Of a stretch of 64,000 nt of DNA, positions 8,401 through 16,486 are shown piece by piece. A program made the position numbers and the translations under genes. Below the pieces are notes generated by a model. The model saw only the letters and a list, made by a program, of their open reading frames with translations, had not been told where the DNA came from and ran no database searches. Every line of letters starts with the position of its first letter. Within the stretch, counting starts at the first letter, position 1. Source of the DNA: Escherichia phage AV121; the sequence record OR352951.1, one strand, 5' to 3'.

Positions 8401-9988
<1,588 letters not shown>

Positions 9989-10015
9989 AATAAAATGGGC
10001 CTTGCGGCCCACTCC

Positions 10016-10518
10016 TTAAAAGTATTTTTTAAAACTCATCATAACTTTATCATCAACATCATTATCAATCTGTGCAACAAGATAAGATGACAGTTCTACT
10101 TCTTGCGGCGCGGATTGAACATTATCAGAATTAAGGTATTCACGAATCCAAGGATATGGATGTTTAATCGGAGCATCGGTAATCGGGCATGGAAGACCAC
10201 ACTGTTTCATACGAGATACAGTTAAGTAATCAATAAAGCTCCACATGCTATTTGTATTTAATCCAGGAACATCGCCATCTTTAAATAAATGAACTGCCCA
10301 ATCTTTTTCTTGGCGGTTAACTTCCATGAAAATATCAACTGCTTCTTGTTCACACTCTTGAGCAATTTTAACCCATTCATCGCCATCAGTGCCAAGTTGA
10401 AGTTGACGAATAATATATTGAGTGCCTTTAAGGTGAAGCTGCTCATCACGTGCAATGAACTTCATAATCTTGGCATTACCTTCCATGATTTCCATATTCT
10501 TGTGGAAGTTAAAGGTAC
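10016..10518 (-). CDS. nrdB: ribonucleotide reductase small subunit, exon 2
   Basis: In-frame continuation gives ...YVSFA-C-TFNFHKNMEIMEGNAK, matching class Ia NrdB (E. coli [21 protein letters not shown]); junction obeys exon-U / intron-G rule. Confidence 0.75.
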
Positions 10519-11609
10519 CGTTATGTTCGATTGAGCTCGCTAATTCTCAACCCGTTCTCTTATGAACTGCTACATATTACTATGCAGACCAGACTATATC
10601 ACAATCCCAGAGGGATTCTCCCCATTTCGAGTCGCTTGACCCTACGTCCGAAGACTAGTCGTTGAACCTTGCTTTGCAATTGTCGCCGTGCCATCGTTTA
10701 TATGTTGATGGTGATAAATCTTTCTTATCACAATATGGACAATTCAATTGAATTCTATTTGGATTTAATTTACATCTGTCATTATGTTTTAGATAAAATC
10801 CAGGACCTTTACCAATGTGACCGCAGAAATCACATGTGATTTCTTTTTGTGCAGGATGGGTCCCGTTCTTAACCATTTCTAATGTTTTTGCTGATGTTCT
10901 TTTCTTATGGTCTTCTGACAAGAAATGATGTGAACCGTCATTTACCCGTTTTGATTGAGTTTCTGACTGCATTTTACCACCGCAAAATACATGAGTACCT
11001 TCTTTTATAGCTGCAATATTGCGTTCTTTAACTTTTGCAATATGCTCAGCTTGTTGAAAATTATGTATACCTAATGCAACTCTATTTAAATTAGATTTAC
11101 GCTGTATTTCACCGTCTAAAAGATGAAATGTACCATTTTCTATCTTAGATTTAATAGAGGCAATATTTTTAGCTCGTACTTCAGGGATATTAAAAATCTG
11201 GATTTCTCTAGATTTTGCGGCTTTAGAAGCTAATTCAGAAATTTCTTCAGGAGAATATTTCATTCTAAGCTTTATAGCATGACAAGCCTGGTAATCTTTT
11301 TGAGCTAAATGTATATCATAATGTTCCTGTATAGAAAGGCACATCAAATTATCTAAATCATTATTTTCACGGTTACCGTCTTTATGATGGATTTCGTATG
11401 TTCTTCCATCAGAATCTTTAGGTATAGGTCCGTTAGCATCTATCCAAATTTTTCTATAGTTCAATTGTGCATCCTCTTAAAAGTATAATCATATTTATAT
11501 TATACTAATTAAAGGTGCAAGCAAAACCTTGGCTGCTAGTTTTCCTATAAAGGACTTTCCAGCAATTAAAGGAGTTTTCGATAAACGTTACCGTTTAAAG
11601 GCGCATTTT
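10519..11609 (-). mobile_element. group I self-splicing intron in nrdB (about 1091 nt) carrying an HNH endonuclease ORF
   Basis: Interrupts a conserved NrdB motif; shares cagaccagactatatc and cgtttcgagtc elements with the td intron. Confidence 0.7.
10655..11464 (-). CDS. intron-encoded HNH homing endonuclease (I-TevIII-like)
   Basis: 269 aa; HNH motif EIHHKDGNRENNDLDNL...H; C-terminal Cys-rich zinc-finger-like region. Confidence 0.7.
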   Translation of the reverse strand: MNYRKIWIDANGPIPKDSDGRTYEIHHKDGNRENNDLDNLMCLSIQEHYDIHLAQKDYQACHAIKLRMKYSPEEISELASKAAKSREIQIFNIPEVRAKNIASIKSKIENGTFHLLDGEIQRKSNLNRVALGIHNFQQAEHIAKVKERNIAAIKEGTHVFCGGKMQSETQSKRVNDGSHHFLSEDHKKRTSAKTLEMVKNGTHPAQKEITCDFCGHIGKGPGFYLKHNDRCKLNPNRIQLNCPYCDKKDLSPSTYKRWHGDNCKARFND

Positions 11610-12285
11610 ACGCAAAAGATACATAAAAACGAATAGCTTCTAAGGCATTAATAACGTGTAAACAGAGGTAAAGAGACTTCATTAAAGCACGTTTAGCTTC
11701 GGCTTCTTGTTTAATAGCTCGGTTTAAACGAAAGTCGGCATCAGGAGATTCTTTAGCTAGTTCTACAAATTCTTTAGCATTTTCCCATTCACGGGTTTTA
11801 ACCAAGACATCATCATAATAGCGACCGATAGATTCAGCACGTTTCATGATAGCTTCATCTAATACAATCTCATCAAATACCTTCGATGGATCAGTATAAA
11901 GATTTCGCATGATATGAGTATATGAACGACTGTGAATAGTTTCACTAAAAGTCCATGTAGCAACCCATGTATCAAGGCTTGGGTCTGAAATTAATGACAT
12001 AAGTACAGCAGACGGCGCACGGCCCTGAATGCTATCCAAAAGTGATTGATACTTCAGGTTGTTAGTAAAAATATTTTGCTGATACTGAGGAAGCTTATTA
12101 AACTGTGCAGCATCCATCATCAAGTTTACTTCTTCAGGACGCCAGAAAAATGATAATTGCTTTTCGGTTAAATCTTCAAAAACTTTATGACGTTGAATAT
12201 CATAACGCGCAATACCAAGACCTGAACCAAAAAACATAGGTTCTTTTAAAACATCAACTGGATTTGTATTAAAAACTGTGCTCAT
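11610..12285 (-). CDS. nrdB: ribonucleotide reductase small subunit, exon 1
   Basis: N-terminus ...KEPMFFG... typical of NrdB; ORF stop is the first intron codon. Confidence 0.8.
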
Positions 12286-12336
12286 AAATTTTCCGCTTAG
12301 TTAATAGTTGGTGACTCGTCCGTGAGTCAAATTATA

Positions 12337-14601
12337 TCATAATTTACAGGATGAACAATCTTCAGCTTTTGGAGTTTCTATTTCATAATCATCAGTACCA
12401 GAACCATCGCGGGTATTATGATAATAGAAATTTTTTCCGCCAAAATACCAAAAATACAAAAGGTCATCAATCATTATTGACATTGGAACCTTGCCTTTAG
12501 GGAAGATTTGGGGGTCATAGTATGTATTCGCCGAAGCTGATTGACAAACCCATTTCAGCATAATAGCTACCTGCGTAAGATAAGGTTTATTACCTTTCTT
12601 AGCTAATTTCCATGTATAGTCGTAAAGGTCTATGTTATGCTCAATATTGGGCACGACTTGATTAAAGGAGCCCTCTTTTGATTCTTTAACAGAGACTGGT
12701 CCACGTGGAGGCTCGATACCGTTTGTACTGTTAGAAACTTGGGAAGATGACTCACATGGCATAAGTGCTGATAATGTGCTATTACGGATGCCAAAGAGCT
12801 TAAGGTCTTCCCGCAGCGCCGACCAGTCACAAACGTATTTTGGAGCTGCGATTTGGTCAATCTTTTTATTGTACCAGTCGATAGGTAATTCGCCTCGAGA
12901 CCAACGAGTGTCTGAATAATATTCGCAAGGTCCTTTTTCTTTGGCGAGCTTAATGGATGCTTTAATGAGTCCATACTGTAATCTCTCAAATAGTTCATGT
13001 GTTAAATCATTAGCATCTTCATAAGAAGCAAAGTTACTTGCCAGCCAAGCTGCATAGTTGGTAACACCTACACCGAGGTTACGACGCTTTTTAGCTTTTT
13101 CTGCTTCAGGAACTGGATATCCTTGGTAATCCAACAGATTATCAAGAGCACGAACTTGAACTTCTGCCAATTCATTAATTTTATCTTGGTCTTGCCAGTC
13201 AAAATTATCTAGTACGAATGCAGAGAGAGTACACAATCCAATTTCAGCATCAGGACTATTCACATCATTTGTTGGAATAGCAATTTCACAGCACAAGTTA
13301 CTCTGACGAATAGGTGCCTTTTCACGAATAAACGGAGTATAGTTATTCGTATTATCAATGAACTGTACATAAATTCTTGCTGTTCCTGAGCGTTCAGTCA
13401 TGAGCAATTCAAATAGTTCACGGGCTTTAATACGCTTTTTACGAATATTAGGGTCTTTTTCTGCTGCTTCGTATAATTCACGGAAACGGTCTTGGTCTTT
13501 AAAATAAGAATAATAAAGCTCTCCGCCCATTTCATGGGGACTGAACAAAGTAATGTAATCGTTCTTTCCAAAACGTTCCATCATCAAATCATTCAGTTGA
13601 ACACCATAATCCATATGACGAATGCGGTTTTCTTCTACGCCTTTGTTATTTTTCAAAACAAGAAGATTTTCAACTTCCAAATGCCAAATAGGATAATAAG
13701 CAGTAGCAGCGCCGCCACGAATTCCACCCTGTGAGCATGATTTAACAGCAGTCTGAAAATGTTTCCAAAAAGGAATAACACCAGTATGGCGTACTTCACC
13801 CATGCCAATCTTAGAACCTTCAGCACGAATCATACCAACGTTAATACCAATTCCAGCGCGTTTAGAGATATATTCAACAATTGAAGCAGAAGCCTTATTG
13901 ATAGACTTCAGTGAATCGCCTGCCTCAATAACAACGCATGAACTAAACTGCCGAGTTGGAGTACGGCAACCAGCCATAATAGGAGTTGGTAATGAAATCT
14001 GTCGAGTAGATACCGCTTCATAAAAACGGATAACATGTTTTAATCTATCAACAGGTTCATCTTGATGCAAGGCCATTCCAATAGTCATAAATGCAAACTG
14101 TGGAGTTTCATAAATTTGACCAGTGGTTTTATCTTTAACTAGATATTTTTCTTTTAATTGCATCGCCCCGGAATAAGTAAATTCCATATCCCGTTCGTGC
14201 TTAATTTTTGATTCTAAAAATGTAATTTCTTCTGCTGAATATTTTGACAACAGTTCAGGGTCGTATTTACCTTCATTTACACAGTAAGAAATATGGTCAA
14301 TAAATGAACGCGGTTCATACTGCCCATAAACATGCTTACGAAGAGCGAACATTAGACAACGTGCAGCTACATATTGATAATCAGGCTCTTCGACCGAAAT
14401 AGAATTCGCAGCGGCCTTAATGACAATAGTCTGAATATCATCAGTTGTCATTCCATCACGGAGATAAGATTTAATATTTTCATATAATTCATAAGGATCT
14501 ACTGATGTTCCCTCAGATGCCCAAGATAAAACTTTAATAATTTTTTGCGGGTCAAAGCTCTGAGAAACACCACTACTTTTGATAACATTAATTAATTGCA
14601 T
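12337..14601 (-). CDS. nrdA: ribonucleotide reductase large subunit
   Basis: 754 aa; ATP-cone N-terminus and C-terminal redox-cysteine tail (CSSCKL). Confidence 0.9.
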   Translation of the reverse strand: MQLINVIKSSGVSQSFDPQKIIKVLSWASEGTSVDPYELYENIKSYLRDGMTTDDIQTIVIKAAANSISVEEPDYQYVAARCLMFALRKHVYGQYEPRSFIDHISYCVNEGKYDPELLSKYSAEEITFLESKIKHERDMEFTYSGAMQLKEKYLVKDKTTGQIYETPQFAFMTIGMALHQDEPVDRLKHVIRFYEAVSTRQISLPTPIMAGCRTPTRQFSSCVVIEAGDSLKSINKASASIVEYISKRAGIGINVGMIRAEGSKIGMGEVRHTGVIPFWKHFQTAVKSCSQGGIRGGAATAYYPIWHLEVENLLVLKNNKGVEENRIRHMDYGVQLNDLMMERFGKNDYITLFSPHEMGGELYYSYFKDQDRFRELYEAAEKDPNIRKKRIKARELFELLMTERSGTARIYVQFIDNTNNYTPFIREKAPIRQSNLCCEIAIPTNDVNSPDAEIGLCTLSAFVLDNFDWQDQDKINELAEVQVRALDNLLDYQGYPVPEAEKAKKRRNLGVGVTNYAAWLASNFASYEDANDLTHELFERLQYGLIKASIKLAKEKGPCEYYSDTRWSRGELPIDWYNKKIDQIAAPKYVCDWSALREDLKLFGIRNSTLSALMPCESSSQVSNSTNGIEPPRGPVSVKESKEGSFNQVVPNIEHNIDLYDYTWKLAKKGNKPYLTQVAIMLKWVCQSASANTYYDPQIFPKGKVPMSIMIDDLLYFWYFGGKNFYYHNTRDGSGTDDYEIETPKAEDCSSCKL

Positions 14602-15470: not shown

Positions 15471-16486
15471 CATTATGTTCAGATAAGGTCGTTAATCTTA
15501 CCCCGGAATTATATCCAGCTGCATGTCACCATGCAGATCAGACTATATCTCCAACTTGTTAAAGCAAGTTGTCTATCGTTTCGAGTCACTTGACCCTACT
15601 CCCCAAAGGGATAGTCGTTAGGCATTTATGTAGAACCAATTCCATTTATCAGATTTTACACGATAAGTAACTAATCCAGACGAAATTTTAAAATGTCTAG
15701 CTGCATCTGCTGCACAATCAAAAATAACCCCATCACATGAAATCTTTTTAATATTACTAGGCTTTTTACCTTTCATCTTTTCTGATATTTTAGATTTAGT
15801 TATGTCTGAATGCTTATGATTAAAGAATGAATTATTTTCACCTGAACGATTTCTGCATTTACTACAAGTATAAGCAGAAGTTTGTATGCGAACACCGCAC
15901 TTACAAAACTTATGGGTTTCTGGATTCCAACGCCCGTTTTTACTTCCGGGTTTACTGTAAAGAGCTTTCCGACCATCAGGTCCAAGTTTAAGCATCTTAG
16001 CTTTAACAGTTTCAGAACGTTTCTTAATAATTTCTTCTTTTAATGGATGCGTAGAACATGTATCACCAAACGTTGCGTCAGCAATATTGTATCCATTAAT
16101 TTTAGAATTAAGCTCTTTAATCCAAAAATTTTCTCGTTCAATAATCAAATCTTTCTCATATGGAATTTCTTCCAAAATAGAACATTCAAACACATTACCA
16201 TGTTTGTTAAAAGACCTCTGAAGCTTTATAGAAGAATGGCATCCTTTTTCTAAATCTTTAAAATGCCTCTTCCATCTCTTTTCAAAATCTTTAGCACTTC
16301 CTACATATACTTTATTGTTTAAAGTATTTTTAATCTGATAAATTCCGCTTTTCATAAATACCTCTTTAAATATAGAAGTATTTATTAAAGGGCAGTCCTA
16401 CAATTTAGCACGGGATTGTCTACTAGAGAGGTTCCCCGTTTAGATAGATTACAAGTATAAGTCACCTTATACTCAGGCCTCAATTA
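15471..16486 (-). mobile_element. group I self-splicing intron in td (1016 nt)
   Basis: 5' end TAATTGAGGCCTGAG directly after exon ...TTGGGT; 1016 nt as remembered for the T4 td intron. Confidence 0.85.
15618..16355 (-). CDS. I-TevI: intron-encoded GIY-YIG homing endonuclease I-TevI
   Basis: 245 aa; GIYQIKNTLNNKVYVGSA GIY-YIG module; matches remembered I-TevI. Confidence 0.85.
   Translation of the reverse strand: MKSGIYQIKNTLNNKVYVGSAKDFEKRWKRHFKDLEKGCHSSIKLQRSFNKHGNVFECSILEEIPYEKDLIIERENFWIKELNSKINGYNIADATFGDTCSTHPLKEEIIKKRSETVKAKMLKLGPDGRKALYSKPGSKNGRWNPETHKFCKCGVRIQTSAYTCSKCRNRSGENNSFFNHKHSDITKSKISEKMKGKKPSNIKKISCDGVIFDCAADAARHFKISSGLVTYRVKSDKWNWFYINA

Follow-up and report, generated by a model that had tools for sequence, protein, structure and literature searches.

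Introduction

[quoted passage not shown] A full-length form of this intron with the I-TevIII homing endonuclease gene was reportedly described in phage RB3 by Eddy and Gold in 1991. The RB3 element was characterised by Robbins et al. in 2007, who found that RB3 I-TevIII cleaves intronless nrdB, drives homing and acts as a dimer, and that intron inheritance is more than 40-fold above that of the T4 copy (PMC1865063). Each of the substitutions H26A, H27A, N39A and H48A abolishes cleavage by the RB3 enzyme, and the cysteine pairs C211/C214 and C242/C245 are zinc ligands on which DNA binding depends (Robbins et al., PMC1865063). The endonuclease copy in T4 is dead, and that intron is mobilised in trans by MobE (PMC2790892), the product of a free-standing HNH gene that both T4 and RB3 carry between nrdA and nrdB. 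The promoters of the intron open reading frames (ORFs) of these phages have been mapped, a hairpin that occludes the ribosome-binding site has been described for I-TevI to I-TevIII, and an autorepression operator for I-TevIII has been proposed, although it is putative and undemonstrated (PMC2988022).

Two further systems are instructive. The td intron of T4 with its endonuclease I-TevI resembles the nrdB intron in residing in a gene of nucleotide metabolism, in having its ORF looped out of a group I core, in a 3' core that is visibly related to that of the nrdB intron, and in possessing a late promoter and a ribosome-binding-site hairpin as described for the nrdB intron (PMC2988022). The two endonucleases are nonetheless distinct: I-TevI is a monomeric GIY-YIG enzyme that cuts 23/25 nt upstream, whereas I-TevIII is a dimeric H-N-H enzyme that cuts 14/16 bp upstream. 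The other is I-HmuI, encoded by the DNA polymerase intron of phage SPO1, which like I-TevIII is an intron-encoded H-N-H enzyme with an extended modular DNA-binding region, but which nicks a single strand and cleaves intron-containing DNA too, whereas dimeric I-TevIII breaks both strands.

Here we describe the nrdB locus of the Tequatrovirus Escherichia phage AV121 (OR352951.1), using coordinates of the 64,000 nt stretch of DNA that was analysed, hereafter the window. Unless stated otherwise, all features lie on the minus strand.

The nrdB intron of AV121 and its splice junctions

The initial annotation of this DNA proposed that coordinates 10519-11609 are a group I intron in nrdB with a full-length HNH endonuclease, and this reading is borne out by near-identity to the RB3 element and by the intact catalytic and zinc-binding residues of the encoded protein. 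We conclude that the segment is almost certainly the RB3-type nrdB group I intron of the Tequatroviruses, with an intact I-TevIII gene in its P6 loop. The interpretation is correct but not new, because the full-length I-TevIII form had been described before and occurs commonly among sequenced Tequatroviruses.

The nrdB gene consists of a 676 nt exon 1 (11610-12285), the 1091 nt intron (10519-11609) and a 503 nt exon 2 that includes the stop codon (10016-10518). The exons were assigned from the ORFs and the sequence together with collinearity to the intronless nrdB gene of phage slur03, and the intron from alignment to RB3 and T4, the Rfam group I family RF00028 and covariation. Without splicing, the frame that opens at 12285 provides the 225 N-terminal residues of NrdB and meets a stop codon just past the sequence YVSFA. 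Joining 12285-11610 to 10518-10016 yields a NrdB protein of 392 aa that reads AIRFYVSFAC/TFNFHKNMEIMEG across the junction (YVSFAC/TFNFHK), which falls after the first base of the cysteine codon (T/GT). This spliced product differs from RB3 NrdB at three positions.

Exon 1 ends with TTTGCGT, and its last base is the U of the U-G pair in P1; the intron, read from 11609 to 10519, begins with AAAATGCGCC and ends with AACATAACG, and exon 2 opens with GTACCTTT at 10518. The last base of the intron (10519) is a G, the 3'-terminal base that characterises group I introns. The slur03 allele is collinear and gap-free over the junction, with GC(A/G)T immediately before and GTACC immediately after the insertion site (TATCTTTCGCAT and GTACCTTTAAC), and because it is collinear there the 3' junction of the intron is fixed; moving the boundaries by one base either way spoils the frame or the match to slur03. 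An interruption inside the YVSFAC/TF motif of about 1091 nt with an exon U and an intron G at its ends, as had been claimed, is thus exact to the base, and we expect the spliced mRNA to read UUUGCGU/GUACCUUU across the junction (11610/10518).

At the homing site slur03 (L003 301-445) has two synonymous differences relative to the window (11611-11616), located 2 and 5 nt before the insertion site, such that slur03 reads TTC GCA T and the intron-bearing alleles TTT GCG T. Either co-conversion tracts or selection on the homing site could account for them.

Relationship to the RB3 and T4 introns

The region from 10400 to 11750 is 100% identical to phage NIC06P2 and 99.4% identical to RB3, RB5, RB6, RB7, RB9 and RB10, whose records give nrdB as a two-piece join enclosing a gene labelled 'I-TevIII: homing endonuclease'. 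The AV121 and RB3 introns share the gene, the insertion site, the 1091 nt length and a 269 aa endonuclease with an H-N-H motif and two zinc fingers; they are identical at 1090 of 1091 positions, and the 45 nt of the homing site that precede the insertion point are the same in both. The single intron difference specifies D23 in RB3 I-TevIII and Y23 in that of AV121, and together with the three NrdB substitutions it distinguishes the two alleles. The phages also differ in that RB3 has mobE between nrdA and nrdB, whereas AV121 does not: nrdA (12337-14601, minus strand) is followed by a gap of 51 nt (12286-12336) that contains neither mobE nor nrdB.1. AV121 therefore differs too from T4, whose intron depends on MobE for its spread, and it appears to combine an active intron endonuclease with the lack of the neighbouring mobE that mobilises the dead T4 intron.

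The T4 intron has the same boundaries and core and is 598 nt long, the AV121 form being longer by 491+1+1 nt. The 491 nt that T4 has lost correspond to intron positions 210-700 (10910-11400), as placed by alignment, and encode the H-N-H domain and linker; the near-repeat GAAGAACATA/GAAGACCATA flanks the deletion. Through it T4 loses the H-N-H domain and the reading frame shifts, but the part encoding the zinc fingers is kept, and the T4 intron additionally has two single-base deletions and a few substitutions, among them compensatory ones in P9. The statement in the initial annotation that the T4 intron ORF is truncated is accurate, since T4 lacks these positions and its own record labels I-TevIII as 'defective ... 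deletion in proximal half'.

The ribozyme core

We placed helices P1, P2, P3, P4, P5, P6, P7, P7.1, P7.2, P8, P9, P9.1 and P9.2 on the window coordinates before counting pairs. The 5' half of the core (11531-11613) comprises P1, P2, the 5' strand of P3, P4, P5 and the 5' strand of P6, and its assignment draws on helix mapping, covariation and the Rfam alignment of an identical core in phage PD112. P1 (11613-11610/11604-11601) pairs exon GCGU with GCGC at intron positions 6-9; it is short, with 4 bp, has the U-G wobble at the 5' splice site, and its pairing is invariant in seven relatives. P2 lies at 11596-11583, P4 at 11564-11559/11539-11534 and P5 at 11554-11543. P3 and P6 join the two halves, with 5' strands at 11574-11571 and 11532-11531 and 3' strands at 10621-10618 and 10668-10667, respectively. 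The 3' half (10531-10668) contains the 3' strand of P6, P7 (GACUA/UAGUC, 10660-10656/10596-10592), P7.1, P7.2, the 3' strand of P3, P8 (10617-10603), P9 (10587-10570), P9.1 and P9.2.

An Rfam scan of the whole window with default settings returned no matches at the gathering threshold, because the 810 nt ORF inside P6 splits the core model. A relaxed scan of the window finds RF00028 on the 3' core only, with 33.9 bits, below the gathering score of 50. The naturally ORF-less copy of the intron in PD112, whose core is identical to that of the window, reaches 68.6 bits across the full RF00028 model, so that correspondence of P3-P9 to the covariance model comes from this copy, the window itself matching with its 3' half only. 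Matches to rseX, ceN113 and Atu_L1 in Rfam were dismissed as chance (E 4.6-6.8).

Seven versions of the intron entered the covariation analysis, namely those of the window, RB3, T4, PD112, Gelderlandvirus UTK0003, HY03 and Mosigvirus AV114. Pairing is found in 99.8% of the pairing cells, compared with 34-46% in a control with the partners slid. Four pairs show compensatory changes, two in P2, one in P5, where UCCU[UUAU]AGGA is replaced by UCCA[GAAA]UGGA, and one in P9, where an A-U/G-C exchange is accompanied by a G-U/G-C pair; the remaining substitutions lie in loops or preserve pairing. P3, P4, P6, P7, P7.1, P7.2 and P8 are invariant among these relatives and are therefore uninformative, such that covariation support is confined to P2, P5 and P9. 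The folding of the core from P1 to P9 that had been suggested as a check, and the comparison with the T4 intron, which shares core and boundaries and is shorter by the three deletions, both come out in favour of a group I intron, with all helices mapped, the full-model match of the identical core and the four compensatory pairs.

The 3' core also resembles sequences from many unrelated phages, with a nucleotide similarity of 70-92%, and a few of these sequences lie in genes whose annotation is thymidylate synthase, DNA polymerase or anaerobic ribonucleotide reductase. These matches probably reflect a shared phage intron core, as expected.

The I-TevIII endonuclease

The I-TevIII ORF (10655-11464) encodes 269 aa and is located in the P6 loop, as supported by the ORF call, PHROG 12324 and an exact-protein look-up. 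It has a TTG start codon with AAGAGGA 7 nt upstream, and its last codons and TAG stop share sequence with J6/7 and the 5' strand of P7. PHROG 12324, 'intron-like DNA endonuclease', spans residues 1-269 (E 1.9e-193). The H-N-H catalytic domain (residues 4-48; 11321-11455) matches Pfam HNH_3 with 48.7 bits against a cut-off of 24.8 (E 6e-13) and includes H26, H27, N39 and H48. Two zinc fingers of the form CX2CX12-13HX3C are present near the C-terminus, at residues 211-231 (10772-10834; CDFCGHIGKGPGFYLKHNDRC) and 242-263 (10676-10741; CPYCDKKDLSPSTYKRWHGDNC), in agreement with the HNH motif and zinc-finger-like C-terminus that had been noted from the sequence. The H-N-H motif, the two zinc fingers and orthology at the same nrdB intron site identify the protein as I-TevIII; it falls in the same 90% cluster as TEV3_BPR03 and is identical to RB3 I-TevIII at 268 of 269 residues.

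Closer alignment, which could have revealed inactivating changes, disclosed none: the ORF is full length without a frameshift or internal stop, and all eight mutationally tested residues are kept (the catalytic H26, H27, N39 and H48 and the zinc ligands C211, C214, C242 and C245). The sole difference from RB3 is at codon 23 (11396-11398), which is TAC (Tyr) in AV121 and GAC (Asp) in RB3, RB5, RB6, RB7, RB9 and RB10, three residues ahead of the catalytic H26. Tyrosine is present at this position in nine of the ten full-length cluster members aligned, including copies that are only 90-93% identical, and aspartate only in the RB3 sequence; the exact AV121 protein occurs on 164 contigs in public collections compared with six for the RB3 sequence. 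The D23 of the biochemically characterised RB3 enzyme is a minority allele among the aligned full-length copies. That the Y23 allele is a more active endonuclease than the D23 reference is a speculation we consider rather unlikely; if true, it could partly explain the large amount of protein that RB3 I-TevIII needs for cleavage and its homing of only 4.3%.

The linker between the catalytic domain and the zinc fingers (residues about 98-207; 10844-11173) contains five tandem modules of ~21-24 aa, each built around G-x-H/F, with the cores NGTFH, LGIHNF, EGTHVF, DGSHHF and NGTHPA. By eye these resemble the small repeated modules with which other phage homing endonucleases bind DNA. A Pfam match to FlgM, an anti-sigma-28 factor, at residues 74-114 (11123-11245; 26.2 bits against a cut-off of 25) has no support from context and probably reflects chance similarity over a short helical stretch. 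No meaningful match to a solved structure emerged when the Protein Data Bank was searched by sequence, either with the whole protein or with just its H-N-H domain. Small plus-strand ORFs of 42-56 aa over the intron are unsupported.

Expression of the intron ORF

A T4 late-promoter motif, TATAAATA, is located at 11492-11499, with 27 nt separating it from the ORF downstream. Its 7 occurrences in the AT-rich window show no enrichment over the 10.4 expected, and its designation as a putative late promoter rests on position and the literature rather than on statistics (PMC2988022). It lies across the loop and 5' arm of an RNA hairpin predicted by folding (11468-11519), in which the Shine-Dalgarno sequence AAGAGGA (11472-11478) pairs with the upstream GCACCUUUA. 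The hairpin has a minimum free energy of -17.9 kcal/mol and a z-score of -3.8, none of 200 shuffled sequences is as stable, and its pairs are preserved in seven relatives.

Just upstream of the TATAAATA motif, at 11509-11526, is an operator-like copy of the homing site that resembles the sequence spanning the intron insertion site, with 16 of 18 positions identical (TTTTGCTTGCACCTTTAA compared with TTTTGCGT/GTACCTTTAA). This element would fit the operator proposed for I-TevIII autorepression and is a possible candidate for it.

A proposed life cycle of the AV121 intron

The core, the junctions and the splicing of the T4 intron suggest that the AV121 intron also splices. In the nrdB pre-mRNA the ribozyme core would fold, guanosine would attack at the 5' splice site that follows the exon U (11610), and ligation of the exons after the terminal G of the intron at 10519 would give an mRNA for the 392 aa small subunit of ribonucleotide reductase. 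The hairpin would keep the ribosome-binding site of the ORF locked in early and middle transcripts. Late transcripts are predicted to start just downstream of TATAAATA, within the upper part of the hairpin, and would therefore lack its 5' arm, freeing the ribosome-binding site, such that I-TevIII would be translated only late; this scheme draws on the sequence and on published work on the T4 introns, and near-identity suggests that late expression applies to AV121 as well.

The I-TevIII dimer would then bind intronless nrdB through its two zinc fingers, and in a mixed infection repair off the intron-containing copy would transfer the intron, along with flanking exon sequence, to the recipient. 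An allele that contains the intron would be protected, since its recognition sequence is split by the insertion. Cleavage and homing by the AV121 enzyme are likely, given the difference of one residue from RB3 I-TevIII and the identical upstream homing site.

Two other explanations of this locus deserve consideration. The intron might splice but encode an inactive or decaying endonuclease, as in T4, being a passenger kept by vertical descent or by a neighbouring endonuclease. Decay of the ORF is common in this intron family, with the T4-type 491 nt deletion, the AV114 deletion and the complete loss of the PD112 type, and Y23, where the assayed RB3 enzyme has D, is three residues before a catalytic histidine. 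However, the AV121 ORF is free of lesions and has every functionally tested residue, Y23 is the consensus of the full-length copies even among the more divergent versions, and MobE, the helper of the dead T4 copy (PMC2790892), is absent, the nrdA stop (12337) and the nrdB start (12285) being separated only by the 51 nt gap. Because mobE is missing, trans-mobilisation cannot account for upkeep of the intron in this genome, and we regard a decaying passenger as very improbable. If I-TevIII is active, the intron in the mobE-less AV121 genome would depend wholly on that activity.

Alternatively there may be no intron, with nrdB existing in pieces as two separately translated fragments around a free-standing HNH gene. 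This is how many GenBank records present it, with two NrdB coding sequences (nrdB_1 and nrdB_2) and a separate endonuclease, and the ATG at 10495 offers a possible start for a C-terminal fragment. Against this, the flanks of the ORF fit a group I model from P1 to P9 with U/G splice junctions and compensatory changes, the insert is absent in frame and base-exactly from intronless alleles, and the curated T4 and RB3 records join the nrdB exons with I-TevIII inside. A gene in pieces is so improbable that it can be set aside in favour of an RB3-type group I intron with an intact I-TevIII gene.

Distribution and decay at the nrdB site

In the phage collection the full-length form is present in at least 84 records, several of them annotated as I-TevIII, the T4-type deletion in 16 and an ORF-less 304 nt form in seven; these counts are of records, including GenBank and RefSeq duplicates, and not of independent phages. 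We estimate that roughly 470 of the ~590 nrdB-bearing records are intronless at this site, calculated by subtracting the short-intron forms from the 479 records that cover a spliced-junction query at a single place.

The ORF-less 304 nt intron occurs in PD112 (L004 367-670), CE1, BYEP01, SP21535, CJY920 and DCP80. It has lost 785 nt between two ACAATTG repeats (positions 142-148 and 927-933 of the window intron) and its late-promoter motif has a 2 nt deletion; in PD112, CE1, BYEP01 and SP21535 the ribozyme core and splice sites are identical to those of AV121 and the ORF is gone. None of the records with the ORF-less form annotates an intron, and that of PD112, which was inspected in detail, has nrdB as two coding sequences. 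Mosigvirus AV114 (L007 375-1045) has an independent internal deletion of I-TevIII with boundaries unlike those of T4 (...GATTCTGATGG/AAGAACATCAGC...), and phage G8 has an 87 aa I-TevIII remnant. The AV114 deletion and the G8 remnant thus indicate repeated decay of the ORF at one site.

In the collection searched, this single site is therefore represented as empty, with an intact element, with internal deletions of at least two independent origins and with clean loss of the ORF, a natural series convenient for studying endonuclease gain and decay. As a discovery the AV121 intron carries little weight, since the element, the endonuclease, its cleavage chemistry, its regulation and the degenerate T4 derivative are textbook examples of phage mobile introns. 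Its practical value is for annotation, as many records split nrdB into two 'genes' and a 'hypothetical protein', and a default Rfam scan misses the intron.

Neighbouring genes and a second intron

Downstream of nrdB, a 144 aa GIY-YIG ORF (9578-10012, minus strand) is situated where T4 and RB3 have denA (endonuclease II), and a 386 aa ORF (8401-9561, minus strand) where they have rnlA (RNA ligase 1), the gene order being as in both phages. The window also contains a second mobile group I intron (15471-16486, minus strand), which splits the thymidylate synthase gene td after the sequence VFLG. It is 1016 nt long, begins with UAAUUGAGGCC and ends with ACAUAAUG, and is likewise missed by the default Rfam scan. 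Its ORF (15618-16355, minus strand) encodes a 245 aa GIY-YIG protein that starts with MKSGIYQIKN and is presumably I-TevI.
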